Shown here one piece after another: positions 9,814 to 56,444 of a DNA stretch of 64,000 bases. Below the pieces are notes generated by a model. The model was not told where the DNA came from. It was given only the letters and a program-made list of their open reading frames with translations, and did no database searches. Each line of letters starts with the position of its first letter. Position 1 is the first letter of the stretch. The position numbers and the translations under genes are program-made. The stretch comes from Polyangiales bacterium (GTDB taxonomy: Bacteria; Myxococcota_A; Polyangia; Polyangiales; Ga0077539): the NCBI GenBank assembly GCA_044229975.1, contig JBGARZ010000012.1, positions 256,001 to 320,000 of the forward strand, in the 5' to 3' direction.

Positions 9814-10626
9814 CTACGGGGTGAGCACTTCCACGAACTCTGCGACCACCCGCACCTCGGCGGCGTCGCTCTCGCGAAGCTCGATGGGCTTGTACTCGGC
9901 GTTGTCGGGGAGCAGGCGCACCCGCCTCGGGGAGAGGCGCTCGAAGCGCTTCACGGTGTAGCTGGTTCCGGTGTCGGCGTCGTGGATGCCACCGTGCTGG
10001 ACGAGCAGGGTGCGACCCTGGAGGTCATCGGGCAGCCGCATGTTGAAGAGGCAGTGCGACCCGTCGGGTATGCGGGGCTCCATGGAGCGGCCGACGACAC
10101 GCGCGACGAAGAGGTTCTTGTGGGCTCTGCGTGATCGGCCCAGCGAGACCCAGGTGACGGTCGGGTCGGTGGGGCCGGGCATGAAGCCGCCTGCGGCGAG
10201 GTCGATGCCGATGAGCGGGACACACGTGACGTAGCGCTCCGTCGCGCGGGGGTGGACGACCTTGAGCGGTGCATCGTCCGCGGCGTCGTCGGCGACGGTG
10301 CGCGGGCTCTGTTGGGCGGCGAGCAGGAGCGCTTCGAGGGCGGCGGCAGTGAGGCCGCGGGTCGCGTCGATGAGGGCGGCGCGGGTGCCGTGCTCGGGGA
10401 AGTTCACGAGGTCGAGCACCTCGACGTTGAGCCGATCGGCGATGGCCTTGAGCGACTGGATGGTCGGGCGAACGCGGCCGTTCTCGATGTCGGAGAGGTG
10501 GCCCTTGGCGATGGTGTCGCTCTCGTGGGCGAGCTTCTCCAGGGTCTTGCCGCGCTCCAGTCGGAGTCCCCTCACCCGCCGACCGATGGCCTCCGAGAGT
10601 GGATCAGGCTCGTCCAACCTCGGCAT
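9814..10626 (-). CDS. XRE-HTH plus S24 peptidase (LexA/CI-like) repressor
   Basis: N-terminal HTH (LSDIENGRVRPTIQSL); AAG candidate cleavage site; VGRSMEP (Ser) and YTVKRF (Lys). Confidence 0.88.
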   Translation of the reverse strand: MPRLDEPDPLSEAIGRRVRGLRLERGKTLEKLAHESDTIAKGHLSDIENGRVRPTIQSLKAIADRLNVEVLDLVNFPEHGTRAALIDATRGLTAAALEALLLAAQQSPRTVADDAADDAPLKVVHPRATERYVTCVPLIGIDLAAGGFMPGPTDPTVTWVSLGRSRRAHKNLFVARVVGRSMEPRIPDGSHCLFNMRLPDDLQGRTLLVQHGGIHDADTGTSYTVKRFERLSPRRVRLLPDNAEYKPIELRESDAAEVRVVAEFVEVLTP

Positions 10627-10725
10627 CGGGCGGGATCGTAGGGAGGCGCACCAACGACTCGTTCGTCGAGACGATCACAACCAATCACCCGTCATCTCCG
10701 CGGAAGAGACGAAGCGATAACTGGC

Positions 10726-10759
10726 CTTGCCGAAGGCATGGCGGTAGAACTTCGGCAAG
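10726..10759. promoter_or_regulatory. Candidate operator: perfect 10-bp inverted repeat
   Basis: CTTGCCGAAG-N14-CTTCGGCAAG between the divergent repressor and the sspB start. Confidence 0.5.
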
Positions 10760-10766
10760 ACGAACC

Positions 10767-11708
10767 ATGGCCGCCGGAAATGCGCGAGGAGCCACCGAGG
10801 GCGGGCGGCGAGAGGTGGGTTCGACGGTGTCCTTCTCCGGGCACGAGAGCTTCCCGCTGCGCTACGGATGGCCGAAGAAGTGCGTCGACGCGGTGGCGAA
10901 AGACCCCGACGTCTTCAACCGCGACGAGGCCATGGTCACGCTCGGCGTCGGCAAGAACATGGTCAAGGCCATCCGCCACTGGGGCCTCGCCACCCGGGTC
11001 ATCGAGGCCCGCGGCCGCACCCTCCAGGTGTCTGCCCTGGGTCACGCGCTCTTCGACGACGACGGCGCTGATCCCTTCCTCGAAGACCCGCGCACCCCGT
11101 GGTTGCTTCACTGGTTCATCAGCACCCACGCCGATCGCGCCACCACCTGGAGCTGGTGCTTCGGATCGCTCCAGCGCCAGGGCTTCACCCGCGACGACCT
11201 GCTGCGCGACCTCCAGGCCGCCCACGTCTCCGCCCGCACCACGCCGGCGACCCTCGCCCGCGACGTCGAGGTCTTCCTGCGTACGTACACACCCGCCCGC
11301 GCGACCCGCGCCGTCGCCATCGAGGACACCCTCGACTGCCCGCTGGTCGAGTTGCGCCTCCTTCGCGAAGACGTCGCCGAGCGGCGCTATGAGTTCGTTC
11401 GGGGGCCGAAGCCTACCCTCGACGACGTCACCTTCGGCTTCGCGGTGCTGGAGTTCTGGCAACGCGTCGCACCCGAGCGAGAGACGCTCAGCGTCGACGA
11501 CCTCGCGCGCCACCCGGGGTCGCCCGGCCGGGTGTTCCGGCTCGATGATGACTCGCTCGCGGCGCGCCTCGAACACGTTGTCCGCTGGTCGCACGGCGCG
11601 CTTCTGCACGACGACACCGCGGGCGTCCGGCAGCTCCTTCGCAAGAAGCGCGTCGACCCGGTGGCGTGGCTACTGACGGAGCTGCGGCGAGAGGGCGCAC
11701 GCGCGTGA
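10767..11708 (+). CDS. sspB: DUF4007 family protein (SspB-like; start may be GTG 10815)
   Basis: FSGHESFPLRYGWPKK, LGVGKNMVKAIRHW, DPFLED and WLLHW are DUF4007 signatures; context with ATPase and PAPS reductase. Confidence 0.85.
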   Translation: MAAGNARGATEGGRREVGSTVSFSGHESFPLRYGWPKKCVDAVAKDPDVFNRDEAMVTLGVGKNMVKAIRHWGLATRVIEARGRTLQVSALGHALFDDDGADPFLEDPRTPWLLHWFISTHADRATTWSWCFGSLQRQGFTRDDLLRDLQAAHVSARTTPATLARDVEVFLRTYTPARATRAVAIEDTLDCPLVELRLLREDVAERRYEFVRGPKPTLDDVTFGFAVLEFWQRVAPERETLSVDDLARHPGSPGRVFRLDDDSLAARLEHVVRWSHGALLHDDTAGVRQLLRKKRVDPVAWLLTELRREGARA

Positions 11709-14700
11709 CGCGGCCCGGTGATCTGTTCGAGGTGCAGCGGAGGTTCTTCCGCTCGGTACATCTCGCGACCGATTCGCAGCGCCACGACGCGAGCGAGGGC
11801 TACGTGCTCACGCCGCTCGGACGAGGAACCCTCGGGCGCATCCTCGACGGCCTCGGCGAGGGGCGCACCGAGCGGGCATGGACGCTGACGGGCCCCTACG
11901 GCGTCGGGAAGTCGGCCTTCGTGGTGCTGCTCGCGCAGCTTCTGTGCGCGGGCTCCGACGCGAGCACCAACACCGCGATGCGGGTGCTGCACGACGGCGA
12001 GCGGACGCTGGAGCGGCGCTTTCACAAGCTGCGCGACGGCAACCGCGGCTTCTGCCCGGTGCTCGTCAGCGGAACCTACGGTCCCCTCCTCCCCCCTCTC
12101 CTCGAAGCCGTCGAGCGCTCGGTGCTCGCGATGACCCGCACGAGCGCCCGGCAGCAACAGTTCTTGAAGGAGCTTCGCTCGCTGCGCTCGAGCCGCGCGA
12201 AGGCCGCCGAGCTGCACCGCCGCGTGGTGCGACTCTTCCAGGACCTCACCGAGCTGGTGGGGCAGCGCCACGGCGGCGTGCTGCTCGTGGTCGACGAGCT
12301 CGGCAAGTGCCTGGAGTACGCCGCGCGAGGAGCGGGCCACGCCGACGAGGTGTTTCTCCTGCAAGAGCTCGCCGAGGCGGCGTCGCGCAGCGGAGAGCGC
12401 CCGATGGTGGTCGTCACGCTCCTGCACCAGGCCTTCGATCGATACGCCAAAGACCTCTCCGCCGAGACGCGCGCCGAGTGGTCGAAGGTGCAGGGCCGCT
12501 TCGAGGACGTCGCCTTCCTCGACGCCCCCGGTGAGCTGCTGCGCCTCGCAGCGCGCACCCTCCACCGCCGCGCGCCCTCCACCGCCGCTCGCTACCAGCA
12601 CTGGGACGCCCTCGCCGAGAAGGCCATCGCGCTCGGGCTCGCTCCGCCCGAGCAGGGCCCGACCTTGCGTCAGCTCGCGCCGTTGCACCCCACCGTTGCG
12701 CTGCTTCTGCCGTCTCTCTGCCGCGGTCCGCTCGCGCAAAACGAGCGGTCGCTCTTCGGCTTCCTGACCTCCACGGCCGACGGGGCCTTCGGCGCCTTCC
12801 TCGCGGCCGACCACGCATCGAGCGCGCCCTCGTACACCCTCGACCAGCTCTACGACTTCATCGTCGCAACCCTCGGCCCCGCGCAGTACACGCTCGCCGC
12901 GGGTCGCCGCTGGGCGGCCATCGACGAGGCCGTTGCCCGTCTGTCCGGCGACGAGCCCGCCCTCTCGGCGCGGCTGCTCAAGGCCATCGGGTTGCTCGGT
13001 CTGTTGGGCTCGCGTGCGGTGCGATCGTCGCGCGAGACGCTGTGCTTCGCGCTCGTCGACGAGGTCACTTCCGAAGCGGAAGTAGGCGCCGCGCTCGATC
13101 GGCTCGCGGCGGCGTCGCAGGTGGTGTTTCGTCGGCACAGCGACGCGTACGCGCTGTGGGAGGGCAGCGACGTCGACCTCGACCAGCACTTCGACGAGGC
13201 CCGCCAGCGGCCGCCCGGTCTGGAGGAGGTGTCGGCGCTGCTCGGCGAGCGGATGCTCTTGCGTCCGTACATCGCGCGGCGGCACTTCTTCGAGACGGGG
13301 ACGCTGCGGCACTTCGACGTGACGTTCCGCACGTCCAATGGGGTGTCGTCAGCGCTCGCGGACGACGAGCTCGACGGGGCCGACGGGCGCATCGTGTACC
13401 TGCTACCGGAGGGGTCGGAGTCGCACGACGACCTCACGGGCCTGGCCGTCGGGGCGGCGCGGCGAGCGGACGTGGTGTTTGGTGTTCCGCGCGAGGCGAG
13501 GCAGCTCCTGGCGGGGTTGCATGACTGGTGCGCGTGGGAGTCGGTGCGCAGCCACGTAGGGGCGCTGGCGAACGATCCAGTGGCGCGGCGCGAGCTGTCG
13601 GCGCGGATCCACTTCGCCAACGACCGGCTCGACGCGGCGGTGCAGTCCTGCTTCGGGCTCGCGGGCGGAGCGCGGGTCGACTGGGTTCACGATGGAGCCC
13701 CGACGGGGTGGAGCGGCGCGCGGGCGCTCTCGCGGGCGCTGTCGGCGGTGTGCGATCGGACCTTCCCCGAGGCGCCGGTGGTGCGAAACGAGCTGCTCAA
13801 CCGTCGCTCGCTCTCGTCCGCGGCGGCGGCGGCGCGGCGCTCGTTGCTCGACGCGATGATGGCGCACCCGCACGAGGCCCGACTGGGCATCGAGGGGACC
13901 CCGCCGGAGTTCAGCATGTACGCGTCGGTGCTCGCCGCCGGGGGCCTGCACCGCGAGCGCGACGGGCGTTGGTCGTTTGGTCCGCCGCCGGAGGACGACC
14001 CGCTGCGGCTGCGGCCGGCGTGGGATCGCATCGAGCAGTTTCTCGACACCACGGAGGACGGACAGCGGCCCGTCCGTGAGCTCTTCGACGCGCTGGCGCG
14101 CCGGCCCATCGGGCTGCGCGAGGGTCCGGTGCCGGTGTTGTTCTTTGCGGTGGTGTTGTCGACGCCCGGCGAGGTGGCGCTCTTCGAGGACGGGAGCTTC
14201 GTGCCCGAGCTGAGCGACGCGGTGGTCGAGCGGCTGTTGCGTCGCGTCGATCACTTCACGGTGGCGCGGCATCGGCTCGACGGTCACCGGCTGGCGGTGC
14301 TGGGTGCGCTGCGCTCGACGCTGGGGTTGGAGGGTGAGCCCGAGGGGGCGATCGCGACGGTGCGGGCCATCGTACGGAAGGTGGGGCAGCTCCCGCGGTA
14401 CAGCCGGAGCACACGCCAGGTGGGGGCGGCGGCGTTGGCGGTGCGCGAGGCGATCCTCGGGGCGCGCGACCCGTTGCGGTTGTTGTTCCGTGATCTGCCG
14501 ACGGCGCTCGGACTCCCGGTCGTCGACCGCGGCGAGAGCGGTGACGTCGGAGCGTACCCGGCGCAGATGGCGGCGGCGTTGGGTGAGCTGGCGGGAGCGC
14601 ACCCGGCGCTGCTCGACGCGGTCGAGCGCAAGGTGGCCGCGGCGCTGGAGGTGTCGGGAGAGGGCGCGTTTTTGCGGGCGGAGCTGACGGCGCGGGCGCG

Positions 14701-15076
14701 GCGGGTGGCGGGGGTGGCGAGCGACCTGCGCTTGAAGGCTTTTCTCGGGCGGACCATGGAGGAGCGGGCGTCGCGGACGGACTGGCTGGAGGGCGTCGCG
14801 ATGGTGGTGGGCAACCGCCCTCCGTCGGAGTGGACCGACGGCGAGGTGGCGCGCTTCGAGGTGGGCCTGGAGGAGGTGCGGATGATGTTCCAGCGGGCCG
14901 AGGAGCTCATGACGGTGCCGCGCGCGCGGGTGATGAAGGTCGATGAGCCGGGGGCGCTGGAGGGGGCGGAGCGAGAGATCTTGCGGCTGCTGGAGGGGCG
15001 ATTCGGGGGCGAGCGCGGGGCGTGGCGGGCGGCGCTGGAGCGAGCGTTGAACGCGGCGCAGGAGGCGGGGCGGTGA
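11705..15076 (+). CDS. sspC: Large P-loop ATPase (SspC-like)
   Basis: Walker A GPYGVGKS, Walker B LLVVDELGK, EWSKVQGRF, PLHP and QNERSLFGFL; GTGA overlap with sspB. Confidence 0.82.
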   Translation: MTRPGDLFEVQRRFFRSVHLATDSQRHDASEGYVLTPLGRGTLGRILDGLGEGRTERAWTLTGPYGVGKSAFVVLLAQLLCAGSDASTNTAMRVLHDGERTLERRFHKLRDGNRGFCPVLVSGTYGPLLPPLLEAVERSVLAMTRTSARQQQFLKELRSLRSSRAKAAELHRRVVRLFQDLTELVGQRHGGVLLVVDELGKCLEYAARGAGHADEVFLLQELAEAASRSGERPMVVVTLLHQAFDRYAKDLSAETRAEWSKVQGRFEDVAFLDAPGELLRLAARTLHRRAPSTAARYQHWDALAEKAIALGLAPPEQGPTLRQLAPLHPTVALLLPSLCRGPLAQNERSLFGFLTSTADGAFGAFLAADHASSAPSYTLDQLYDFIVATLGPAQYTLAAGRRWAAIDEAVARLSGDEPALSARLLKAIGLLGLLGSRAVRSSRETLCFALVDEVTSEAEVGAALDRLAAASQVVFRRHSDAYALWEGSDVDLDQHFDEARQRPPGLEEVSALLGERMLLRPYIARRHFFETGTLRHFDVTFRTSNGVSSALADDELDGADGRIVYLLPEGSESHDDLTGLAVGAARRADVVFGVPREARQLLAGLHDWCAWESVRSHVGALANDPVARRELSARIHFANDRLDAAVQSCFGLAGGARVDWVHDGAPTGWSGARALSRALSAVCDRTFPEAPVVRNELLNRRSLSSAAAAARRSLLDAMMAHPHEARLGIEGTPPEFSMYASVLAAGGLHRERDGRWSFGPPPEDDPLRLRPAWDRIEQFLDTTEDGQRPVRELFDALARRPIGLREGPVPVLFFAVVLSTPGEVALFEDGSFVPELSDAVVERLLRRVDHFTVARHRLDGHRLAVLGALRSTLGLEGEPEGAIATVRAIVRKVGQLPRYSRSTRQVGAAALAVREAILGARDPLRLLFRDLPTALGLPVVDRGESGDVGAYPAQMAAALGELAGAHPALLDAVERKVAAALEVSGEGAFLRAELTARARRVAGVASDLRLKAFLGRTMEERASRTDWLEGVAMVVGNRPPSEWTDGEVARFEVGLEEVRMMFQRAEELMTVPRARVMKVDEPGALEGAEREILRLLEGRFGGERGAWRAALERALNAAQEAGR

Positions 15077-15882
15077 GCGCCACGGAGAAGCCGGTGCGGC
15101 ACGTGCTGGGGTTGTCGGGAGGGAAGGACTCCTCGGCGCTGGCGATCTACATGCGCGAGCGGGTTCCGGAGATGGAGTACGTCTTTTGCGATACGGGGAA
15201 GGAGCTCCCCGAGACGTACGAGTTTCTCACGAAGATGGAGGCGTATCTCGGCAAGCCGATCCAGCGGCTGATGAGCGAGCGGGACTTCGATCACTACCTG
15301 GATGTGTTCAATGGGTATCTCCCGTCGAGCCGGATGCGGTGGTGCACGCGGCTGCTGAAGCTGAAGCCCTTCGAGCAGTACGTGGGCGACGACCGGGTGG
15401 TGAACTACGTGGGGATTCGCGCGGACGAGCAGCGCGAGGGGTACATCTCGACGAAGCCCAACATCACGTCGGTGTTTCCCTTCCGGGAGGACGGGCTGGT
15501 GAAGGCCGACGTGCTTCGGATATTGGAAGAGAGCGGGGTGGGGATTCCGGGGTACTACCGGTGGCGGTCGCGGTCGGGGTGCTCGTTCTGCTTCTTCCAG
15601 CGGAAGGAAGAGTGGGTGGGGCTCAAGCGGGAGCACCCGGACTTGTTTGAAGAGGCCAAAGGCTACGAGAAGACGGACGCGACGACAGGGGAGCGGTTCA
15701 CGTGGCGCAAGGGCGAGACGCTGGACGAACTGGTGGCCAGGGAAGAGGCCCGGGGCGGGGAGGAGAAGCGGCCCGAGCGCGCGGTGAAGCGGAAGAATCT
15801 GCCGCTGGTGAGCGTGTTTGCGGACGAGGGCGATGGGGACGAGGACGAGGATGAGCGGCCGTGTCTGATTTGTGAGTTGTAG
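15073..15882 (+). CDS. sspD: PAPS-reductase family protein (SspD-like)
   Basis: PP-loop LSGGKDS, CDTGKE, RWCTRLLKLKPF, GIRADE, SRSGCSFCFFQ and terminal CLIC; GTGA overlap with sspC. Confidence 0.87.
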   Translation: MSATEKPVRHVLGLSGGKDSSALAIYMRERVPEMEYVFCDTGKELPETYEFLTKMEAYLGKPIQRLMSERDFDHYLDVFNGYLPSSRMRWCTRLLKLKPFEQYVGDDRVVNYVGIRADEQREGYISTKPNITSVFPFREDGLVKADVLRILEESGVGIPGYYRWRSRSGCSFCFFQRKEEWVGLKREHPDLFEEAKGYEKTDATTGERFTWRKGETLDELVAREEARGGEEKRPERAVKRKNLPLVSVFADEGDGDEDEDERPCLICEL

Positions 15883-15893
15883 GGAGGACGGGC

Positions 15894-16535
15894 TTGAACT
15901 TCCCATTTCCTAGTTACCGCTTTGACGAGCTTGACCAAGCTCCTGATCAACCTGGCATTTACGCTTGGTACCATGAAGTCCGCCTCACCAGTGCCGACAT
16001 CGACCAGTTTGTGCAGCAGATCAAGAAGCTAGAGACCGGGGCGCGACCGCCAGTGGTCGAGAGCTACCTCCGCGAGCGAGTCTTCGATCCGTACAAGGAG
16101 TCACCGTACCAGATCGCGCTGCGGGGAGGGCTGAAGCCGGAGTACGGCGGGCACGTCAACCACCAGCCTCGGGTTTCGAAGACGACGATAGAGACGCTGG
16201 CAGAGAAACCCGACGGGATTCGCGAGATTCGTGATCTGCTGAAGCGAATGGTGCCGGTGTTTGCGAGTCCTATCTACATTGGGGTAGCGACCCGCTCCCT
16301 GCGCACCCGCCTATTGCAACACCAGACACTTCTGGTCGAGTATCGAGAAACGCCTGCGGCAGCAATCCCTGACGACGAAGACCACTCCTTTGCCTATGAG
16401 GCGATCTGCGAGCGCGGTTTGTCGCCTTTAGAGCTGATTGTCTACGCCATGGAGACGCCGGTGTCGCGCGAAATGCAGCTTGCCGCCGAGTACATCTTTA
16501 ATCGCATCAACTACCCGCTCTGCGGGCGAAGGTAA
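15894..16535 (+). CDS. GIY-YIG nuclease-like protein
   Basis: PGIYAWY ... PIYIGVA, LRTRLLQH, late AEY..N..YP; GGGAGG RBS before a TTG start. Confidence 0.75.
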   Translation: MNFPFPSYRFDELDQAPDQPGIYAWYHEVRLTSADIDQFVQQIKKLETGARPPVVESYLRERVFDPYKESPYQIALRGGLKPEYGGHVNHQPRVSKTTIETLAEKPDGIREIRDLLKRMVPVFASPIYIGVATRSLRTRLLQHQTLLVEYRETPAAAIPDDEDHSFAYEAICERGLSPLELIVYAMETPVSREMQLAAEYIFNRINYPLCGRR

Positions 16536-16540
16536 CGCTG

Positions 16541-18754
16541 ATGATCCCGAAAGCACCCAAGAAGCAGAGCGCGCTCGACCTGACCATCAAAGGATCCATG
16601 GGCGATTTCGTCGTATCGCAAGGAGGAACTTCCTCGGTGCGAGTCAACTATCTCCTGAGCCACATCGGGCTGGAGCTCGAAGGCGATCATCAAGAGCGCC
16701 TGCTGTCACGCATCGCCCCGTTTCGTGAGGTATTCGATACCCGAACGTTGGACTTCGACCAGATCATGCAGCGAGACATCGACGACTCGCGCGTCTCGGC
16801 TGACCTTATCCGATATCTACTAGAGAAGGCCAATACGGGATTGGTCAAGCTCTTCCCACCGATCATCGTAGTGCTGCTACCGACGGACGCGGGTGGCAAG
16901 CCCGCGTCCTTCTACCCACCGGTCGAGGGCGCGACCATTGAACAAGATGAGTCTCAATTCGAGGTGGTGCGCTCTGGAGCAGTCGGGCAGGAGGTATTTG
17001 AACTGCGACGCTGGCTTGTCGACGGGATGCCCCAGTCGCACGATTTCGCCGAGTTGCGCATCAACACCAATCGCTGCAAGTTGGTCATCGTCGATGGCCA
17101 GCACCGCGCGATGAGCTTGCTGGCGTTGTACCGCAACATCAAGGGCTGGCCCGAGCGCACCCGCAACGTTGAACCCTATTACAAAATCTGGACGCGTGCC
17201 CGGATCATGGATTTCGACCTGCACCGCGCCAAGATGCCGATCATGTTCTGCGTCTTTCCACAGCTCGACGGGCAGCAGGACAACGCCCAGCTCAAGGTTC
17301 ATGAGGCGTGTCGATCGATCTTCCTGGCTCTGAACAAGAACGCTCGCCCGGTTACGCGTTCGCGCAACATCTTGCTGGACGATCGGGATGTGGTCGCAAT
17401 GTTCCTGCGCGAGATCCTCGGATACATCAAGGACCGCAACATTGGCACCATGGAGAGCATTCGGCTGCCTGCGGTCGAGCTAGACAATGACAAGAACCAA
17501 TCGGTGTTGAAGTCACCGGTCGCCATCACTGGCGTTACCCATCTCAACGGGCTCGTCGAGCGCCTGATGCTCGCGATTCCCCCTCAGCCGGGGCTGACGG
17601 TCAAGGCACAGAACCTCTGGCTGAGCACGCGTCTCGACAAGTGCTTTGCTCGTCTGGGGGTTCAGGATCAACTCACGCCTGACATCGAGAAACGTGTACG
17701 TCGGGACGCGTGCGATCGCGAAGTGATGTCGGTTCTGCGGAGCGCCTTCGAGGTGGTCTATCGGCCGGTGCTTGTTCGCGGACTCGACGCTTTCGCGCCG
17801 TATCGCGTTCACCACGAGGCGTCTACGGCCATGCACATGAAGTTGGACGCAGGAGCAACGTCCGATTTCTATCGAGCGATCCTGTTTGAGGGCGAAGGCA
17901 TGAACCGGGTCTTCGAGGACTTCCAGAAGCGTCTCGGAGAAATGCTGGACGACGACGAGTTCGCGACGCCCGAGCTCAAGCAGACGCGCGACGAGTTCAC
18001 CGGTCGACAGGCCAGCCTCGCCAAGGAGGTAGAGGAATTTCAAACTGACCGTGTGACCCGACTGCTCGGTGACGTGCCGAAGGAACTCGCGGGTAGTCCG
18101 AAGATCCAAAAATGGATCAACGACGACCTCTATGGAGACACGCTGACGACCGCAGCGTTTCAGAACGCGCTGTTTTTGACGTTTTTCGGAGTCATCGAAC
18201 AGATCAACAGCGACCGATCGAGGCCACCCGCTGCGGCGCCCGCGCTGACGGCGGTAGAGATCGGCGAGATGTTCGAGGGCTACCTCTCAGACCTCAACGC
18301 GTTCTTCTCTCCCAAAAAGCGGGCGGGATTGGAGAACCTCGTTGCGGTGTTCCACGGCGAGCTTCGTTCTGATGGCGCGCTGATCGCGACCAACGCCAAC
18401 CTCAAGAAGATCCTGTTGCCCACGGAGCTCAAGCCCGATGAGTGGCCGAAGTTCCGCGCCATGTTGCAAGAACTCTGGCACCCGGCCCTGCCAGAAGCGC
18501 GCAGCCTGTTGGTGGCACACCGAGACATGGTGCGACGACAAGCGCTCGAACGTTACATCGCCCGGGCGGTCACTGAGTTCTGTCGGGACAAGGCGATTCG
18601 CGAGAAGGACCTTGGCGCCCCTGAACGTGAGCAGATCGAGCAGACCTGCACCGACCGGCTCGTGAAGGGGCTCTCGGCGCTAGGTTCTAAGGTGAACGCG
18701 GACGACCTACTGAAGAGCGTGCGCGCGACGCCCCCAGAGCAAACGGAGGAGTGA
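16541..18754 (+). CDS. DGQHR-domain (DndB/ParB-like) protein with long helical C-terminus
   Basis: IMQRDID..RV, FPPIIV, VIVDGQHR and IFLALNKNARPV; 5-bp gap after the GIY-YIG gene. Confidence 0.85.
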   Translation: MIPKAPKKQSALDLTIKGSMGDFVVSQGGTSSVRVNYLLSHIGLELEGDHQERLLSRIAPFREVFDTRTLDFDQIMQRDIDDSRVSADLIRYLLEKANTGLVKLFPPIIVVLLPTDAGGKPASFYPPVEGATIEQDESQFEVVRSGAVGQEVFELRRWLVDGMPQSHDFAELRINTNRCKLVIVDGQHRAMSLLALYRNIKGWPERTRNVEPYYKIWTRARIMDFDLHRAKMPIMFCVFPQLDGQQDNAQLKVHEACRSIFLALNKNARPVTRSRNILLDDRDVVAMFLREILGYIKDRNIGTMESIRLPAVELDNDKNQSVLKSPVAITGVTHLNGLVERLMLAIPPQPGLTVKAQNLWLSTRLDKCFARLGVQDQLTPDIEKRVRRDACDREVMSVLRSAFEVVYRPVLVRGLDAFAPYRVHHEASTAMHMKLDAGATSDFYRAILFEGEGMNRVFEDFQKRLGEMLDDDEFATPELKQTRDEFTGRQASLAKEVEEFQTDRVTRLLGDVPKELAGSPKIQKWINDDLYGDTLTTAAFQNALFLTFFGVIEQINSDRSRPPAAAPALTAVEIGEMFEGYLSDLNAFFSPKKRAGLENLVAVFHGELRSDGALIATNANLKKILLPTELKPDEWPKFRAMLQELWHPALPEARSLLVAHRDMVRRQALERYIARAVTEFCRDKAIREKDLGAPEREQIEQTCTDRLVKGLSALGSKVNADDLLKSVRATPPEQTEE

Positions 18755-18777
18755 CCGCCACAGGGTGACCCATCACC

Positions 18778-19113
18778 TCAAGCCGCCGCGTAGTCCCCAA
18801 ACCGTCGCCGGCTCAGGTGCTGAAACGCCAGCACGATGCGGTCCTTGGGGACGCCGGCCGCTTCGAGGTCGCGCGCGATGCCGCGCTCGGTTCCGTCGTG
18901 CTGGATCCATATCTTGCCGTCGATGATATCGACGTGAAGTAGCGGCGCGTGGACGCGCTTCGGCCCCTCCCACCCAACGGCCATGAGCAGGTAGTGGTCC
19001 TGCGCGCGGTCGAAAACCGTCGAGAGCGCGATGTCCCCGTAGGACACCGGCACACGCGTTTCCTCAGTCAAAAGGCTCTCGATCAGATCGCGCCACTCGG
19101 CTGGGGCATCCAT
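18778..19113 (-). CDS. xisI: XisI family protein
   Basis: FDRAQDHYLLM..GW..KRVH..LHVDIIDGKIWIQHDGTE..AGVPKDRIVLAF. Confidence 0.92.
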   Translation of the reverse strand: MDAPAEWRDLIESLLTEETRVPVSYGDIALSTVFDRAQDHYLLMAVGWEGPKRVHAPLLHVDIIDGKIWIQHDGTERGIARDLEAAGVPKDRIVLAFQHLSRRRFGDYAAA

Positions 19114-19517
19114 CGGACGATCCTTTCCTGCGCGGGGTCGAAACACAAGATGCGATCGAGCGCGTGTTGCAACGCCACCTCGCCAATCGGCTCCTGAAAC
19201 AGGGTGTTCCACACGTCGTCGGGTACCGCAACGAAGAGCATGCGCCCGGGGTCCTGCTGCGCAAGCAGAGCGCGGTAGAGCACGTGCTGACCCACGGTCT
19301 GTTCCAGTGCCTCTACATCGGAGGGACCGCCGAAGGTCTTGATCTCCACGGCAATGCGCAGAGTGCCCTTCTCCGCTGCGAGCATCCGCTCGGCGCCGAG
19401 GTCGACGTAAAGGTTGCGGCGACCGGACGTCACCCGCAGCGGATCATGCGTCACCGTCCACCCATCGTGGATCAGCGCGTTTTTCAGTGCAGCGTGCAGA
19501 CGGTCTCTTGCGGGCAT
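19083..19517 (-). CDS. xisH: XisH family protein (PD-(D/E)XK-like)
   Basis: MPARD..H..KNAL..DGW.VT.DPL, YVDLGAE, IAVEIKTF and GQ..LYR..L; overlaps xisI. Confidence 0.92.
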   Translation of the reverse strand: MPARDRLHAALKNALIHDGWTVTHDPLRVTSGRRNLYVDLGAERMLAAEKGTLRIAVEIKTFGGPSDVEALEQTVGQHVLYRALLAQQDPGRMLFVAVPDDVWNTLFQEPIGEVALQHALDRILCFDPAQERIVRWMPQPSGAI

Positions 19518-19580
19518 GACTTGTGATCCAGTGCGAGGCTGTCCGTCGCACGCCCACGGCATGCCGGTCAACGCGCCCCC

Positions 19581-20420
19581 TCACCGCGCGCACCGAAACC
19601 CCACGAACGCGCTCCGGTACCCCATCTCGTAGCGCCCGCGCCCCAGCAGCTCGCCCGCCGTCCTGTCGCCGTCCGTCCACCCGTGCCCGCGCACCACGTG
19701 CGCCACCCTCACCGTGTCGTCGGGCCGCAGCACCCGGTCGGCCGTCCACTCCGCGACGTTGCCCGCCACGTCGAGCACCCCGTACGCTGACGCGTCCGCC
19801 GCGAAGCTCCCCACCGGCGCCGTCGCCCCGAAGCCGTCGTCCGCCGTCCGCCACGACCGGTGCTCCGCCCCGTGGCTCGCGAACCACCGCACGCACTCCG
19901 GCCCGCACAGGCTCGCCCGCGCCGCGTCCGCCGTCCGCTCGTCGCCCCATGGGTAGCGCCGCTCGTCGTCGCCCCGCGCCGCGTGCTCCCACTCCGCCTC
20001 CGTCGGCAGCCGCGCCCCGCGCCACCGGCAGTACGCGTCGGCGTTGCGCCAGTCGACGCAGTTCATCGGGTGCGCCTCCCCTCCGGCCCGCCCGAGGTTG
20101 CACGCCGGGTCGAGCGAACGCCGCACCGCCGCCGTCACCCCCGCCCACGCGACGGCGCGCTGGGGCGCGCAACGCCCCGCCGCCACGCAGGCCCGGTACG
20201 CCCGCACCGTCACCTCCGTGCGGTCGATGCAGTACGCCGCGAGCTCCACCTGCCGACGCGGGTTGTCCGGGCCGTGCACGTCGTCGCGCGAGCCGATCCA
20301 CGCCCGCGACGCGGCTAACCCCACCATCCCGTCTGGGCACTCCACCCCGCTCTGCGCCTCGACCGCGCCCGCGCCGAGCACCAGCGCCACCAGCGCCACC
20401 AGCACCACCCACGCCCTCAC
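19581..20420 (-). CDS. Exported FGE/SUMF1-fold (formylglycine-generating enzyme family) protein
   Basis: Signal peptide; IDRTEVT, PMNCVDW, RLPTEAEWEHAARG, GNVAEW and GFRCAR; GTG overlaps the methyltransferase stop. Confidence 0.87.
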   Translation of the reverse strand: MRAWVVLVALVALVLGAGAVEAQSGVECPDGMVGLAASRAWIGSRDDVHGPDNPRRQVELAAYCIDRTEVTVRAYRACVAAGRCAPQRAVAWAGVTAAVRRSLDPACNLGRAGGEAHPMNCVDWRNADAYCRWRGARLPTEAEWEHAARGDDERRYPWGDERTADAARASLCGPECVRWFASHGAEHRSWRTADDGFGATAPVGSFAADASAYGVLDVAGNVAEWTADRVLRPDDTVRVAHVVRGHGWTDGDRTAGELLGRGRYEMGYRSAFVGFRCAR

Positions 20421-22477
20421 GCCACCACCCGCATCCCCGCGGGCGCCGTCATCCCCGCGAGCACCCCCCGCATCGCCTCCAGCCCCGGCCCGTACCCGCT
20501 CCAGTCCACCCCTTCGCCCGCCGCCACCCGCAGCGCCTCGTCGAACCCCCGCTGCCCCGCGTACCCCTCCATCGCCGCGTGCATGTACCGCGACTTCATC
20601 CACAGCGGCTGCGGCTCATACTCGCCCCCGTATGCGTAGTAGCTCACCTGCTGCCGCCGCAGGTCGATCTTCACCCGCTCCACCATCAGCGGAACCGCGC
20701 TCCCCTCGTAGTCGTCGTACCGCATCAGGCTCACCTTCCCGGAGCCGATGTGCAGCTTCACCACGTCGGCGTTTTGCGCCTCGCCGTACAGCTTGCCCGC
20801 GCACCCCACGTAGACCCTCAGCGCCGGCGGCAGCTCGTTGACCAACCTTGCATCCACCTGCAACGACTCGCCCGCCACCAGCGCCCCGATGCCCTGCGCC
20901 GCGGCCGCCTCGCACGCGGCCTCCACCGCCCGCGCGTCGCGCAGCGAAAACAGTAGCCGCTGCCCCGCCTCCGCCGCCTTCGCCTGCGACCCCCAGAACT
21001 CCCGCACATCCCTCGCCGCCCGCGCGCCCAACGCCCCCGCCGACCGCCTCCGCTCGAAGAGGTTCAACGCAAAGAACACCGACAGATCCCCCACGCGCCG
21101 CACCCGCGCCTGCTCCAGCTCTTCCGCGCCGCGCTCCTCCGTCAGACGCCGCAGCACCACTGCCGCCGACGCCACGTCGCGCGTCAGTTCGCCCATCCGC
21201 GCGAACTCCTCCTCGCGCGGAGCCCTCCCGATCGCCACGCACGCCCGCCAGAACTCCTCCACCAGCTCGGCGTGACGCTCCCATCGCGTCGGCGCCTTCG
21301 GCTTCGCCACCCGCGGCGCGCGCGGCTCTCGCGCCGGTCGTTCCACCGCGGGCCGCACCGGCATCGCCCCGAAGCGACCCGACGACCGCTGCCGCTCTTC
21401 GAGGAAGTCCTGCTCGTCCTCGTCGCGACGAAACACGAAGAACAACCCCGGCCCCACCGACACCGGCTCGCGACCGAGCGCCGCCGCGACGTAGTCGCCG
21501 AGCTCTTCGTGGCCGAAGTACTTCTGGAAGGTGCTGCGCGACGTGAGCACCCCATCACCAAACGCCCGGTGCTGCTCGCTCGCCGCGCGCCCGCCGAGAA
21601 TCGCCGACACCGCCAGCACCTTGCGGGCGAGCCCGTACGCGCGGGTGAGCGCCTCGCGCCGCTCGTCGGGGTCTTCGATGACGTTGAGGACGAAGCCCAG
21701 GTTGACCACGTCGGCCTCGGCGCGCGGAGCATCGGGGCGGTAGTACGGGTCCCAACCATCGGCCGTGACGCCGCTCGCCGCGAGCGCCGCGAGGTCGTCG
21801 CCGCGCCCGCAGCCGTAGTCGAAGACGCTCAGCGCCGCCCCGAGGTACCCGTGCCGCCACAGCGCCTGCATCGGCGTCGACAGCGCGCGTCGCGCCATGG
21901 CCGTGCGGTGACGCAACACCTCGGCCGACTCGACGGTCTCCAACGGCACCAGCGAGTGCCCCTCCACCCGCAGCCCCTTCGCCCGAACGATCTCCTCCCA
22001 CTGCCTCCGATGCCCGATCACCAATGGGTTGGCGAAGAGACCATGGCCCTCGGCCGCCGCCGTGAGCGCCGCAAACGCCGCGCGATGCGGGTCGTCGGTC
22101 GGTAGCAGCAGCTCCTTGCGGTGCAGCACCGGGGGATTGCGCGCGAGGTCGTAGGTGCGGTGCTCGCAGCGACGCTCGGCGAGGTCGATGGTCCAGGCGT
22201 CGGAGAGCAGCGGGAAGGGGCGCTCGAAGAAGTCAGGGTACGAGAGCAGCGACAACCGCCGCGCGTCGGGCGCCAGCTTGAGCACGTTGAAGCCCTCAGC
22301 CGGACCACCCACCGCCGCCACCTCTGCGCGCAGGTACGCCAGCGTCTCGTCGGGCACCGCGCTCAGATGCACGTAGCGCGCGCCGCCGACCACCTTGCCC
22401 GCGGTGATGCCACCGACGTGCGACCGCCACCGCCCCAACGCCTCGCCGTCTTCATCGCGGGGATCGGTCGTCGCCAT
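20417..22477 (-). CDS. DNA phosphorothioation-associated putative methyltransferase
   Basis: HRTAMAR..LS.P, VFDYGCGRGDD, GWDPYYRP, ADVVNLGFVLNVIED..ER, DGVLT.R.TFQKY and NPPVLHRKE. Confidence 0.88.
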   Translation of the reverse strand: MATTDPRDEDGEALGRWRSHVGGITAGKVVGGARYVHLSAVPDETLAYLRAEVAAVGGPAEGFNVLKLAPDARRLSLLSYPDFFERPFPLLSDAWTIDLAERRCEHRTYDLARNPPVLHRKELLLPTDDPHRAAFAALTAAAEGHGLFANPLVIGHRRQWEEIVRAKGLRVEGHSLVPLETVESAEVLRHRTAMARRALSTPMQALWRHGYLGAALSVFDYGCGRGDDLAALAASGVTADGWDPYYRPDAPRAEADVVNLGFVLNVIEDPDERREALTRAYGLARKVLAVSAILGGRAASEQHRAFGDGVLTSRSTFQKYFGHEELGDYVAAALGREPVSVGPGLFFVFRRDEDEQDFLEERQRSSGRFGAMPVRPAVERPAREPRAPRVAKPKAPTRWERHAELVEEFWRACVAIGRAPREEEFARMGELTRDVASAAVVLRRLTEERGAEELEQARVRRVGDLSVFFALNLFERRRSAGALGARAARDVREFWGSQAKAAEAGQRLLFSLRDARAVEAACEAAAAQGIGALVAGESLQVDARLVNELPPALRVYVGCAGKLYGEAQNADVVKLHIGSGKVSLMRYDDYEGSAVPLMVERVKIDLRRQQVSYYAYGGEYEPQPLWMKSRYMHAAMEGYAGQRGFDEALRVAAGEGVDWSGYGPGLEAMRGVLAGMTAPAGMRVVA

Positions 22478-22569
22478 GGCTTCCGCGGTCGATGGTACTT
22501 GAAGCCTACCGGGTCGATCTGGCGCCTTGACGCGACCTCTCCGCTCACCCTTCCATGCCGACACTCCTG

Positions 22570-24695: not shown

Positions 24696-25655
24696 TCAGC
24701 CGAGCAGCTCGTCCGCCGACGCTGCCGTGAAGAGCCGCTCCGACCACGTCGTCAGCCGATCGACGTCCGACTCCGTGGCGACGAGTGCTGCCTGCTCTTC
24801 GGTGAGCGCGATGCCCCGCAATCGGCACCCCTCCAGGAGGTTGCGCGCCGTCACCACCTGCATCCGCGCGAGCTGGTCGACCACGTCCGAGCGCTGTCGC
24901 TCCGCTTCCGAGCGCTGCCGCTCCGCTTCCGAGCGCTGCCGCTCCGCCTCGTCGAGCGCTCCCTGTCGTTCGTCTGCGAGGGATTGCAGGCGGGCCACGA
25001 GCTCGCTTTCACTCGGCACCATGGACTGGTTGACGAAGAACCGCAGCCGCAGTTGCACGATCGCGAGATCGAGCCCGAGCACATTCGATCGCAGATACCC
25101 GCCCTGCGGAACAATCGGTTGATAGGTGCGGGTCCCGGGAGGCAGGCGCCATCCACGGAGGACGCCGCGCCGACAGTCGAAGCTGAAGTATTCGGGGATG
25201 CCCACGCGGGCGTAGTCGCGGACGTTCTCCACGACGTCCTTGTGCTTGCGCCCGAGGTTGCGCACCTCGACCACGAAGTCGACGCCGCGCTTCTCGTTCT
25301 GGACGATCCAGCTCTCGGGCTCGTAGTCCGGGTCGCAGTCGAGCACCGCCATCACGTCGGGCACGATGACCGCCTCGCCCGGATAGAACACCCCGAGCTC
25401 ACTGGCGAGCAGCACCCCGCGTCCCAGCCGACGGAAGTGAGCGTCGAGGTCGGCGGCAATACCCATCTTGCGCTTGGAGTGCTTCACGCCCTCGGTCATC
25501 GCCTCGCGGTACTCGTCGAGCACGGCCTCGATGCGCTCCACCACGGCGTCGCGCTCGCTCGGCGACAACCGACCCCAGGTCTCCTCGTCCGGGAACACGA
25601 TGCGCGGGTCGTCCCACACCCGAGGCGTCGCCGTGCGCTGTGATCCGAAGGTCAT
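24696..25655 (-). CDS. Uma2 family endonuclease with coiled-coil tail
   Basis: VPDVMAV, DFVVEV, DYARVGIPEYF and EAERQRS x3. Confidence 0.85.
   Translation of the reverse strand: MTFGSQRTATPRVWDDPRIVFPDEETWGRLSPSERDAVVERIEAVLDEYREAMTEGVKHSKRKMGIAADLDAHFRRLGRGVLLASELGVFYPGEAVIVPDVMAVLDCDPDYEPESWIVQNEKRGVDFVVEVRNLGRKHKDVVENVRDYARVGIPEYFSFDCRRGVLRGWRLPPGTRTYQPIVPQGGYLRSNVLGLDLAIVQLRLRFFVNQSMVPSESELVARLQSLADERQGALDEAERQRSEAERQRSEAERQRSDVVDQLARMQVVTARNLLEGCRLRGIALTEEQAALVATESDVDRLTTWSERLFTAASADELLG
24886..24948. repeat. 3 x 21-bp coding tandem repeat (EAERQRS)
   Basis: TCCGAGCGCTGYCGCTCCGCY repeated three times. Confidence 0.9.
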
Positions 25656-25722
25656 GGTCGGTCCATGGTACCGCCGCGGGACGCTCGTTCGCCATCGGTC
25701 ATCGACGTGATACGAGCGCGCG

Positions 25723-27084
25723 GTGCATCGACCACGGCGCCCTCTCTCCGTCGCCCTCCTCTTCGGCAGCATCGTTGTCGGTTGCGTGGACGACCCACCC
25801 ACGACCGACGCTGCGCTTCAAGACGACGCCGCAGACGTAGCCCCGCTGGACGTCACGCGTAGCGATGTCTCCGTCGTCGATGTCTCCGTCGTCGACGTCC
25901 CCGTCGTCGACGTCCCTGCCCTCGACACACCCTCTCCGCACGACGTCGCGTTTGCGCCCGATGCCTCCATCGACATTGGCGTCGCGCCCGCGCTCGATGT
26001 CCCCGTCGACATCCCCATCGATGCCCCCGACGCGCCCACTCTCGACCGCCCCGACGCCCCCGCAGTCGACGTCCCCATCGACATCCCCATCGACGCCCCG
26101 CGCCCCGACCCGCTCGCCACGCTCGGTGAGTGTCTCGGCTCCTCCGCCCCGCTCACCATCTCGCGCCAGATGCCCTTCGTGTCGGTCCCCATTGGTGGGC
26201 TCCGTGGTGAGTTCGTCCTCGACCACGGAACCACCTTCTCCAGCATCGACCTCGCCGCCTTCCCCTCGCCCGGCCCCGCCACCTCGGGCTGCGACCCCAC
26301 GCGCCTCGGCGTCACCTGCACCGTCGACGCCTTCTCCTTCTTCGCCCCCGCCTCGCCCGTGCGCCTCGTCACGGCCGACTTCCGCGCCGTCGCCGCCTCC
26401 GTCCGCCAGGCCGGCATCGTCGGAACCGACTTCACCAGCCTCCGCGTCGTCGCCCTCTCCTACGCCACCGCGCGCCTCTTCGTCAGCAACACCACACCCC
26501 GCTGCACCGACGCGGCGTGGCGCTCGGCCGGCTTCGTCGCGCTCTCCTCCGCGGGCTTCTTCAGCGACGACCTCTCCACCCTCAACCCCATGACCACCGT
26601 CGACTCCAGCGCCGCGCCCGCCGCGCGCGTCCCCAACGTGCCGACGGTCACCGTGCGCCTCGCAGACACCACCGCCGTCGCCCAGCTCGACACCGGCTTC
26701 GACGATGCGCTCGTCCCCTTCTCGGTCAACGTCAATGACGCCTTCTACCGCGCCATCATCGCGCGTGACCCCGGCGCCCTCGTGCGCGACGCCGCCCACG
26801 ACCTCGCGCTCACCACCTGCGTCGTCGGCCTGAGCGAGTCCGTCGACGCGTACTCCATCGGTGCAGGCCGCGCGCTGGAGTTCGTCGACGACCGCGGCGC
26901 CGTCGCGAGGCGCTACCCCGGAGCGACCATCTTCGTGAAGCGCACCCCCACCGCCGCTCGCACCTGCGGCGGCATCGGAACCTGGACCGCTCCCGCCGCC
27001 CAGATCGCGGGGTCGTTCTTCGTGGACTTCGGGGCGGTGGTGTTCGACCCGTTCAGCGCGCGCGTGTGGGTGCAGCCGCGGTGA
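25723..27084 (+). CDS. Lipoprotein with PD/VD-repeat stalk and putative two-lobed aspartic-protease fold
   Basis: VVGC lipobox; FVLDHGT, GIVGTDF, AQLDTG and IAGSFF..VVFD motifs. Confidence 0.65.
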   Translation: MHRPRRPLSVALLFGSIVVGCVDDPPTTDAALQDDAADVAPLDVTRSDVSVVDVSVVDVPVVDVPALDTPSPHDVAFAPDASIDIGVAPALDVPVDIPIDAPDAPTLDRPDAPAVDVPIDIPIDAPRPDPLATLGECLGSSAPLTISRQMPFVSVPIGGLRGEFVLDHGTTFSSIDLAAFPSPGPATSGCDPTRLGVTCTVDAFSFFAPASPVRLVTADFRAVAASVRQAGIVGTDFTSLRVVALSYATARLFVSNTTPRCTDAAWRSAGFVALSSAGFFSDDLSTLNPMTTVDSSAAPAARVPNVPTVTVRLADTTAVAQLDTGFDDALVPFSVNVNDAFYRAIIARDPGALVRDAAHDLALTTCVVGLSESVDAYSIGAGRALEFVDDRGAVARRYPGATIFVKRTPTAARTCGGIGTWTAPAAQIAGSFFVDFGAVVFDPFSARVWVQPR

Positions 27085-44084: not shown

Positions 44085-46160
44085 CTACCGGACGATGTAC
44101 CGCAAGGTGTAGGTCATACCGCTGCCGCCGATGCGCTCGTCGACCACCAGCGCATGCAGGCCGCGCGCGGTCGTCACGTTGTTGAGCCGCGAGCCGTAGC
44201 TGAGCGTGTCCGCCCCCGAACCCGTACCTCGGCAGTTGCTACCGCCCATGGTTCCGCCGTCGTCGTTGCAGGTGCTCTCGGTGTTGGTCACGGCGCTGCG
44301 GATGTAGATCGCCGGGTCGTAGTTGGTCGTGCCGATGCGCCGCGTGTACGTCCCGCCGTCGCTCGCGCACAGGCTGAAGAACTGCTGCGTCCCGCCGCAC
44401 GTCGTGAACCACCGGACGTCCTCGCCGGACGCCGTCCCGCCGCAGGTTCCGGCGATGCGCCCGGTGCCCACGAGCACCGTCGACGTCGAGCCGTCGCCCC
44501 GGAGCCGATCGGTATAGAAGTACGACCCGAGGTTGCTCGGCAGGTGCTGCACCCGCAGCGTGAAGGTGCCGGTGCCGCAGCCGCCGACCACCACGTACCA
44601 GGTGCCCGCGCCGAGCACGCCCGCGGTCTGTGAGTTGAGCCCGCTGCTGAAGCCCGCCGCGCTCGACGCGCAGCCGCCGTCGTCGTTGCAGAGCCCGAGG
44701 TTGGTGTTGCCCGACCCGGACTGCGCCGCCACCGGGACGCCCATCTCGTTGGTGATGGAGAGCGACGTGTCGAGCGTCGAGCCCGCCGTGTCGAGGTACA
44801 CCACCTCCTGCTGCGCCAGCGTGAAGCGGTACCAGACGTCCGCTCCGCTCGTGCACCCGCACGGAACCGTCGGCCCATCATGCGTCGCACCGGTCGTGGT
44901 CCCGGTGACGGTGGTCTCGGCGGCGCCGAGGGCGATCACCCGCGCGGCCGCCCGCGCGTCGTTGGCAGGCGCGCAGGCCCCGGCCGTACACGACGTCCCG
45001 CTGGCGCACGCCGTCCCGCACGCGCCGCAGTTGGCCGTGTCGGTCTGCACGTTGACGCAGCGGCCCGAGCACTGGGTCTGCCCGGCCGTGCACACGGTGC
45101 TGCACGCGCCCGCGCTGCACGTCGACGGGGCGGTGCAGGCCCGCGCGCACATCCCGCAGTTGGCCGCGTCGGTCTGGAGGTTGACGCAGCGGGTGCCGCA
45201 CAGGGTCTGACCCGTCGGGCACGCGCACGCGCCCGCCACGCAGGACGTCCCGGTCATGCAGGTGGTGCCGCACGCGCCGCAGTTGGCGGGGTCGGTGCGG
45301 GTGTCGAGGCAGCGCCCGGCGCACGCGGTCTGACCCGTCGGGCACGCGCACGCCCCCGCGGTGCAGCGCTGGCCCATGGTGCACGCCGTCCCGCACGCGC
45401 CGCAGTTGGCGCTGTCGGTGGTGACGTCGACGCAGGCCGACATGCCGCCCGACGCGCAGGCCCGGCCGGGCGCGGGGCACGAGCTACGGCACGCGCCCGC
45501 CACGCAGCTCTCGCCCGCGCCGCAGGACATCCCGCACATCCCGCAGTTGCCGAGGTCACCCATCGTGTCGACGCACGCGGCGCCGCAGCGGGTCTGCCCC
45601 GTCGGGCACGCGGCCGGAGAGCACGCGCCCTCGGTGCAGCGCTCGCCCGCGGCGCACGCCTGGCCGCAGCCGCCGCAGTGGGCGGGCGCGATGTTGGTGT
45701 CGACGCACATCCCGCCGCAGTCGATCTGTCCGGTGGTGCACGTCGCAGCGGCCTGGCAGGTGCCGGCCGAGCAGGTCTGCGCGGCCGAGCACGCCTGGCC
45801 GCAGGCGCCGCAGTTGGTGGTGTCGCTGGTGGTGTCGACGCAGGCACCGCCGCAGTCGGTCTGCCCGCCGGGGCAGCGCGCGCGGCACACGGAGGCGGTG
45901 CAGTCCTCGGTGGCGCCGCAGGCGCGGTCGCACGAGCCGCAGTGGAAGCGGTCGCTGGCGAGGTTGAAGCACTCGTTGCCGCAGCGGGCCTGACCCTCCG
46001 GGCAGGTGAGCGGGTTGGTGATGCCCGCGTCGTCGCCGGTGTCACCCGCGGCGCTCGGCACGTCGTCCTCTCCGGTCGGAACCATCGTGTTGCCAGCGCA
46101 GCCGACAAGGGCCACAACGAGGGGAAGAGCGAACCACCGAAGCCAGGGCGCCAGTCGCAT
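44085..46160 (-). CDS. Cys-rich repeat lipoprotein (8 x CVD...NCGACG..C) with C-terminal PPC-like beta domains
   Basis: LVGC lipobox; eight ~40-aa 8-Cys repeats; two D(V/P)..Y/F ... CNDDGG domains. Confidence 0.85.
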   Translation of the reverse strand: MRLAPWLRWFALPLVVALVGCAGNTMVPTGEDDVPSAAGDTGDDAGITNPLTCPEGQARCGNECFNLASDRFHCGSCDRACGATEDCTASVCRARCPGGQTDCGGACVDTTSDTTNCGACGQACSAAQTCSAGTCQAAATCTTGQIDCGGMCVDTNIAPAHCGGCGQACAAGERCTEGACSPAACPTGQTRCGAACVDTMGDLGNCGMCGMSCGAGESCVAGACRSSCPAPGRACASGGMSACVDVTTDSANCGACGTACTMGQRCTAGACACPTGQTACAGRCLDTRTDPANCGACGTTCMTGTSCVAGACACPTGQTLCGTRCVNLQTDAANCGMCARACTAPSTCSAGACSTVCTAGQTQCSGRCVNVQTDTANCGACGTACASGTSCTAGACAPANDARAAARVIALGAAETTVTGTTTGATHDGPTVPCGCTSGADVWYRFTLAQQEVVYLDTAGSTLDTSLSITNEMGVPVAAQSGSGNTNLGLCNDDGGCASSAAGFSSGLNSQTAGVLGAGTWYVVVGGCGTGTFTLRVQHLPSNLGSYFYTDRLRGDGSTSTVLVGTGRIAGTCGGTASGEDVRWFTTCGGTQQFFSLCASDGGTYTRRIGTTNYDPAIYIRSAVTNTESTCNDDGGTMGGSNCRGTGSGADTLSYGSRLNNVTTARGLHALVVDERIGGSGMTYTLRYIVR

Positions 46161-56350: not shown

Positions 56351-56444
56351 GGTGTTGGCGCACCGGGTGCCGTAGGCCGCGCGCTCCCACGAGCGTGTCC
56401 TGCATCGGTGACATCCAACTGGTTGGTGACCTCCCCGCGAGGCG

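Follow-up and report, generated by a model that had tools for sequence, protein, structure and literature searches.

Two described effectors of phosphorothioate (PT) systems, SspE and DndI, each join a ParB-like NTPase to a nickase, and in both a tyrosine directly before a QR motif senses PT (SspE Y63/Y30, PMC13251355; DndI Y25, PMC11662687). Among 2,678 sspBCD loci, 83.9% have neither SspE nor SspFGH, and further restriction partners have been asked about (Wang et al. 2021, PMC8092258). Standalone URI/GIY-YIG genes that border Dnd loci have been proposed as suicide back-ups in a paper whose cited parts mention neither Ssp loci nor the gene pair treated here (PMC10853773). Here we describe a pair of genes, one for a divergent GIY-YIG nuclease and one for a long DGQHR protein, that follows sspBCD in a 64,000-nucleotide stretch of Polyangiales bacterium DNA (contig JBGARZ010000012.1, positions 256,001 to 320,000, forward strand), called the window below. 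The pair is a real and widespread partner module of PT systems, apparently unnamed, whose function we read from gene context and predicted folds. We think it probable, with some reserve, that it would act as an exchangeable PT-gated anti-phage nuclease module behind SspBCD, resembling SspE and DndI in logic and belonging to neither.

The five genes of the operon are, in window coordinates:

10767-11708, + strand: sspB (DUF4007), 313 aa from the chosen ATG; predicted DNA-recognition/nicking subunit of the PT writer
11705-15076, + strand: sspC ATPase, 1123 aa; PADLOC SspC 8e-287
15073-15882, + strand: sspD, PAPS-reductase family, 269 aa; PADLOC SspD 1e-114, PAPS_reduct 6e-13
15894-16535, + strand: predicted, divergent GIY-YIG nuclease, 213 aa; TTG start behind GGAGGA
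16541-18754, + strand: long DGQHR protein, 737 aa; DndB-type N-terminal domain at about 15-345 followed by a helical C-terminal region

A first-pass annotation of this DNA had reported five co-oriented, tightly coupled genes, and all are present as described, with GTGA overlaps at 11705-11708 and 15073-15076 followed by gaps of 11 bp and then 5 bp. Its naming of the DUF4007, ATPase and PAPS-reductase genes as sspB, sspC and sspD also holds, all three being intact by PADLOC and Pfam models (for sspB, DUF4007 Pfam 2e-80 and PADLOC SspB 1e-93). The start codon of sspB is uncertain, the DUF4007 match opening near 10833. GC content, a feature that the annotation had not remarked on, steps down along the operon, from 0.71-0.73 in sspB and sspC to 0.64 in sspD and 0.58-0.60 in the GIY-YIG and DGQHR genes.

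The host genome (G000; 10.0 Mb, 71% GC, 93% complete; the window is on its contig C4) contains one sspBCD, and close homologues carry the labels Polyangiales, Myxococcota or delta proteobacterium. Next to sspBCD there is no cysteine desulfurase gene; homologues of an SspA-type query are found on contigs C38 (43%) and C31 (36%). No full-length match to SspE was found in this 93%-complete genome, nor a match to any of 13 SspF/G proteins used as tblastn queries, and dndC was not found there.

The 213-aa protein matched no Pfam, PADLOC or NCBIfam model, and its annotation as a GIY-YIG protein was upheld by predicted fold and conserved catalytic residues. For the predicted structure (pLDDT 93.5), the six best structural matches are all GIY-YIG proteins: UvrC (1ycz, Z 8.9, rmsd 2.4, 85 residues aligned), I-TevI (8.7), T4 EndoII (8.1), Eco29kI (7.7) and PD-T4-3 (5.5), five that are titled as GIY-YIG-type nucleases, and 2lwf, which we take to be a GIY-YIG domain. 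In the first row below these six, Z falls to 4.3. The GIY-YIG superfamily is defined by the GIY and YIG motifs, a central Arg and a C-terminal Glu, and the 213-aa protein has all of them. Its GIY (21-23) and YIG (128-130) are split by a mostly helical insert of about 100 residues, which likely explains the Pfam miss. Homologues numbered 76 among 308 candidates. Across 125 sequences, G21, Y23, Y128, G130, R139, H143 and E199 are conserved in 122-125 and N203 in 101. We regard the protein as a predicted active nuclease.

The 737-aa protein proved to be a DGQHR protein as annotated, with a DndB-type domain and, in a Pfam scan, no nuclease domain or motif. It matches Pfam DndB (1.8e-7, 31 bits against a cut-off of 29.1) and TIGR03187 (7e-9, under that model's cut-off), and scores 16 bits against a cut-off of 328 for the DndB equivalog TIGR03233 (about 355 aa), so that it is not DndB proper. 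RefSeq calls its homologues 'DndB' or 'hypothetical protein'. We found 436 homologues among 7999 scored candidates; in a profile search, 319 representatives passed E<=1e-30. In 71 sequences the QR, DGQHR and FxxxN motifs show invariant Q77 R78, D185-R189 and N265 and a nearly invariant F261, and DGQHR is kept in 218 of 218 sequences. Using hhalign, the family profile aligned with a DndB-like set at 97.6% over residues ~36-344, and with six SspE-type proteins at 4%, in an alignment confined to the motif.

Structure comparison said less about this protein. In the predicted model (pLDDT 89.3) the N-terminal domain gave weak ParB-like matches, PadC (Z 4.8, rmsd 3.1, 99 aligned) and SspE (Z 4.2, rmsd 5.0, 155 aligned), which are in the noise range for a 737-aa model, and the top VIA-align score (Z 5.4) is a short C-terminal hairpin. 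Foldseek returned nothing at E<=0.001, and a PDB sequence search with the profile gave nothing useful. The helical C-terminal half found no clear structural match, and an ESM Atlas search with residues 300-737 gave only leads at 0.85. The residue preceding QR, equated with the SspE and DndI pocket by motif position and without superposition, is M in 145, L in 56, V in 7, I in 5 and other or unmatched in 5 of 218 sequences, and never Y. Sulfur sensing would accordingly need another pocket.

Since DndB is described as a negative regulator of transcription, the pair might be a regulatory or housekeeping module, in which ssp expression or PT density is kept down by the DndB-like protein and the nuclease acts on oxidised or excess PT sites, nicking or repairing them. 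The DndB-like profile would fit such a role, as would the repair enzyme UvrC as best fold match of the nuclease and the fact that the DGQHR gene can persist beside ssp without GIY. We nonetheless rate this as quite improbable: ordinary-length DndB-like genes accompany the pair in 8 of 59 ssp loci, true dndB is present in L199 and L208, and two further results, on slot and tree, point the same way below. As a side observation, shorter DndB-like genes (~410-480 aa where checked) stand beside sspBCD in L011-L014, L020, L053, L058, L072, L092, L114 and L123, even though the described DndB belongs to Dnd systems.

The two genes recur together in many genomes. We analysed 79 genome loci (from the best 80 of 105 confirmed) and a set of metagenome loci. 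GIY is directly upstream of the DGQHR gene in 66 of the 73 genome loci with at least 500 bp of upstream sequence; conversely, among metagenome loci with 400 bp or more behind GIY, the DGQHR gene comes next in all 62. The gap between them is at most 30 nt in 117/122. Cultured strains and plasmids carry the pair, one example being a plasmid locus of Asticcacaulis excentricus CB 48, and record titles of the loci include Alpha-, Beta- and Gammaproteobacteria, Cyanobacteria, Actinomycetota, Planctomycetota, Verrucomicrobia, Acidobacteriota, Poribacteria and others. GenBank phages gave no match, and IMG/VR two loci.

Recurrence beside sspBCD, which the first-pass annotation had proposed to survey, is the rule: ssp genes are found in 59 of 67 pair loci, and in 42/45 where at least 7 kb is available on both sides. 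Long metagenome loci have ssp genes in 18 of 19 cases, the exception (L199) being a dnd locus. At least four gene orders occur, including B-C-D-GIY-DGQ (30), convergent (12) and GIY-DGQ-B-C-D (4). In one sample of 300 genomes of the cyanobacterial phylum, the long DGQHR gene turned up in 5 of the 18 that have a strong sspD match and in none of the other 282 (Fisher p 4e-7, a significance that kinship exaggerates). SspF/G was not found in any fetched pair locus. PADLOC scans of neighbouring genes took in 131/228 and 120/220 of the picked ORFs. The module is mostly Ssp-linked and yet not Ssp-specific, given that dndABCD(E) genes replace ssp as neighbours in L199, L208 and L134; in Nonomuraea (L208), for example, the pair precedes dndABCDE.

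Two observations touch on variants of the pair. A divergent subfamily, with a 600-690-aa DGQHR protein carrying an LFQRD-type motif and a divergent GIY-YIG protein, lies beside sspBCD in L084, L085, L087 and L125. In a Scytonema locus (L023:6502-12361) the pair occurs twice, in convergent orientation, and one copy is divergent.

The pair could instead be a PT-independent defence that accompanies PT writers because it covers gaps that they leave. It might be, for example, a split GmrSD-like type IV restriction enzyme directed at base-modified phage DNA, or a back-up of the abortive kind; suicide back-ups have been proposed for the standalone genes near Dnd (PMC10853773). Such a role would agree with the missing PT-sensing tyrosine, with a gene tree independent of SspBCD, with carriers that show no writer and with the 5hmC-specific PD-T4-3 (Z 5.5) among the structural matches of the nuclease. 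The linkage to PT genes is, however, far tighter than ordinary island clustering (the 42/45 and 5/18 versus 0/282 above) and spans Ssp, Dnd and PT-binding nucleases. Moreover, of the 8 unlinked pairs, 6 are in genomes that encode a writer at another site (ssp genes in 4, dndC in 2), and the other 2, from draft genomes, showed neither. We therefore regard a PT-independent pair as unlikely.

A third possibility is an enzyme that targets PT itself, cutting incoming DNA with a foreign PT pattern in the manner of SBD-HNH proteins. The PT-binding endonuclease NF045808 abuts the DGQHR gene in three ssp-less loci (L057, L068 and L079), and sspD was not found in their genomes. Only one of these three loci keeps GIY, however, and most copies of the pair lie in or adjoin the operon of the cell's own writer, which makes this alternative very improbable. 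An HNH fusion suspected in L079 was rejected, the HNH being a separate gene on the opposite strand. HNH genes were also seen elsewhere: in L003 (3214-4452), L004 and L052 (5978-7291) one replaces GIY-YIG upstream of a close DGQHR homologue, in genomes where no sspD was found and dndC was found in one.

We found that the position behind sspD is exchangeable. Two relatives in the same genus, G374 and G001, show 75% DNA identity across sspBCD, and the sequences part exactly at the sspD stop codon. Beyond it, G001 has sspF (in two ORFs), sspG and sspH, with its own pair elsewhere in the genome (L002), and G374 has an SF2 helicase gene ended by the contig end. In L017 the gene order is the same as in the window. 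This divergence into either SspFGH or a helicase gene indicates an exchangeable effector slot, and a slot held in common with SspFGH argues against a regulator.

The pair also has a history of its own. Tree distances over 45 loci, computed without phylogenetically independent contrasts, correlate for GIY with DGQHR (rho 0.91) and for SspC with SspD (0.92), and not for DGQHR with SspC (0.02). After dropping a deep clade and dereplication, the values for 17 loci are 0.62, 0.85 and 0.01, respectively. GIY and SspC show a weak residual signal (0.22, n=38), and the trees agree at the tips, with L017 coming out nearest for each of the five genes. For a regulator one would expect a tree like that of its operon, and the pair does not have one. 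From these sequence comparisons we infer that the pair may have re-associated repeatedly with writers through the mark, and not via a protein interface with SspBCD.

To see how often the pair is found when it is not itself the query, we picked 40 loci by sspD alone from four phylum samples, with a neighbourhood of about 10 kb; the samples are small and some contigs cut. Centre genomes were left out of the tally, as were 11 small genomes with weaker PAPS-reductase matches (7 fetched, no sspB seen). We counted SspFG(H) in 9, SspE in 2, the pair in 7, the long DGQHR gene alone in 3, a helicase + MORC set in 12 and none of these in 10. The 7 pair loci (3 close and 4 of the divergent subfamily; in one the GIY is hardly recognisable) overlap with neither SspFG(H) nor SspE, and none is among the 12 Pseudomonadota loci. 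This makes the pair a candidate for part of the sspBCD loci without known effector, about a quarter of those lacking SspE and SspFGH (7/29).

In the same sample the set of SF2 helicase and MORC/GHKL ATPase (+ PLD-like) genes, for example at L010:12267-16683 and L207:14355-18912, stands behind sspD in more loci than SspFGH or SspE does. It has no good PADLOC system match, and we consider it a second candidate effector module. The helicase-MORC-PLD trio had been suspected to be SspFGH, an identification that was rejected. Separately, small cyanobacterial-phylum genomes (L128, L130, L131) have an SspD-like gene adjacent to a short SspC-like ATPase and no sspB seen, and in some genomes of this group related matches are multi-copy.

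Returning to the PT-gated nuclease module that we favour, SspBCD together with a distant IscS-type desulfurase would mark host DNA with phosphorothioate on one strand. The long DGQHR protein would bind DNA, its putative ParB-like domain hydrolysing NTP in a PT-sensitive manner, and would control the GIY-YIG nuclease encoded by the separate gene: invader DNA without the mark would be nicked, and host DNA that carries it released. The nuclease might be on by default, with PT sparing self, as for DndI, or PT might switch it on, as for SspE; we lean slightly to the first, DndI-like mode. The 7 ssp-less loci with a lone DGQHR gene all lack GIY, which tilts slightly in the same direction, an argument weakened by incomplete genomes.

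Several observations weigh against a PT-gated nuclease module. The ParB-like fold matches are weak (Z 4.1-4.8), the PT-sensing tyrosine of SspE and DndI is replaced by M, L, V or I (Y in 0/218), and the nearest family of the long DGQHR protein, judged by sequence, is the regulator DndB. Draft genomes G003 and G815 carry the pair with no sspD or dndC detected. The DGQHR gene stands without GIY beside ssp in L108, L111 and L119, and in the 7 loci mentioned above it has neither GIY nor nearby ssp; 6/7 of these lone-DGQHR genomes showed neither sspD nor dndC. On a Trichormus plasmid, for which sspBCD is listed in the PLSDB table, GIY has an in-frame stop. Finally, SspE is stacked with the pair in 3/59 loci, and a helicase + MORC gene in several, so the pair need not be the main effector. 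The proposal that it takes the place of SspE thus fits the host genome, where SspE and SspF/G were not found, and fails for the loci that have both.

Two features of the loci without GIY may be recorded here. Among the 7 lone, ssp-less DGQHR loci, 5 have an HNH neighbour, which in two is the PT-binding endonuclease. In the cyanobacterial ssp loci L108 and L111, brxL follows the long DGQHR gene and MNT(-HEPN) genes occupy the usual position of GIY.

Two further genes, neither of them noted in the first-pass annotation, flank the operon in the window:

9814-10626, - strand: XRE-HTH + S24 peptidase regulator gene, divergent from the operon (Pfam; regulator role putative)
20417-22564, - strand: PT-associated putative methyltransferase (TIGR04096 1e-159; the start may be internal)

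The XRE-S24 gene is retained upstream of sspB in two close relatives (L017 and L083). The methyltransferase gene lies 1.7 kb downstream of the pair, and the same family is present in 15 of 59 loci with pair and ssp. BREX type 4 was considered and set aside, as pglZ, brxL, brxP and brxC had no PADLOC match among the 10 genes over 9814-22564, the part of the genome searched for them. Rfam families, tRNAs and sigma-70-like promoters were looked for and none found, and terminators only at chance level. An XisH/XisI pair (18778-19571, - strand) converges on the DGQHR gene. Further along the - strand of the window are a Uma2-family gene whose product ends in a short repeated peptide (24696-25802), a 691-aa ORF with Stig1-like cysteine-rich repeats (44085-46160) and a 735-aa ORF with a C-terminal KaiB domain (54207-56414). 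Elsewhere in the genome, C33:262797-263684 encodes a protein homologous (34%) to a PT-DNA-binding HNH endonuclease, and C9:6640-7242 a second, distant PAPS-reductase-like gene.

The pair matches no described effector model in PADLOC, NCBIfam or Pfam, and neither PADLOC nor NCBIfam has a named system for it. No description was found in the literature searched, which held few subscription papers and did not cover the supplement of PMC10853773. The pair is small; PADLOC 2.0, NCBIfam and Pfam miss it, or it receives the wrong label DndB. Tentatively, and at somewhat less than even confidence, it may be a new PT-reading restriction module, the first to combine a GIY-YIG nuclease with a sensor of DndB type whose sulfur pocket does not use tyrosine, and a mobile cassette for Ssp and Dnd writers. 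If so, DGQHR proteins could read a backbone mark directly, and PT immunity would gain a nuclease class and a sulfur-sensing pocket that are both new to it.

Among known systems, GmrSD and BrxU type IV enzymes resemble the pair, whose own ParB-like domain is putative, in combining a ParB-like domain with a nuclease, sometimes in two genes (PMC4619093); DUF262 and DUF1524 are undetected in the pair, whose nuclease is of the GIY-YIG type. GmrSD_N/C and PADLOC SspE models had no match in the 213-aa and 737-aa proteins, and the motif is DGQHR, not DGQQR. The DGQHR proteins DndB and DpdB (PF14072, TIGR03187) share the QR, DGQHR and FxxxN motifs with the 737-aa protein (motifs from PMC4619093), which differs from them in being about twice as long, coupled to a nuclease and found together with true dndB. 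SspFGH, the partner in SspABCD-SspFGH (PMC8092258), holds the same slot after sspD in the relative G001, while the pair matches no PADLOC SspF, SspG or SspH model. SspABCD-SspE has the same writer genes and, beside sspBCD, a ParB-like NTPase domain of DGQ(Q/H)R type, which in the pair is putative, and a nuclease (PMC13251355). Unlike SspE, a single DUF262 + HNH chain with a P-x-Y-Q pocket, the pair consists of two genes with a DndB-type DGQHR domain, M or L in place of Y, a GIY-YIG nuclease and a profile match of 4%. The idea of a two-gene analogue of SspE therefore survives as architecture and not as kinship, the tyrosine being absent and the profile that of DndB-like proteins (97.6%). IscS-DndBCDE-DndI, in which a nickase gated by a ParB-like ATPase spares PT-marked self DNA (PMC11662687), comes nearest to the mode that we favour. 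DndI is a fused, Dnd-tied DUF262-HNH protein with Y25, whereas the pair is split, GIY-YIG-based and mostly linked to Ssp.

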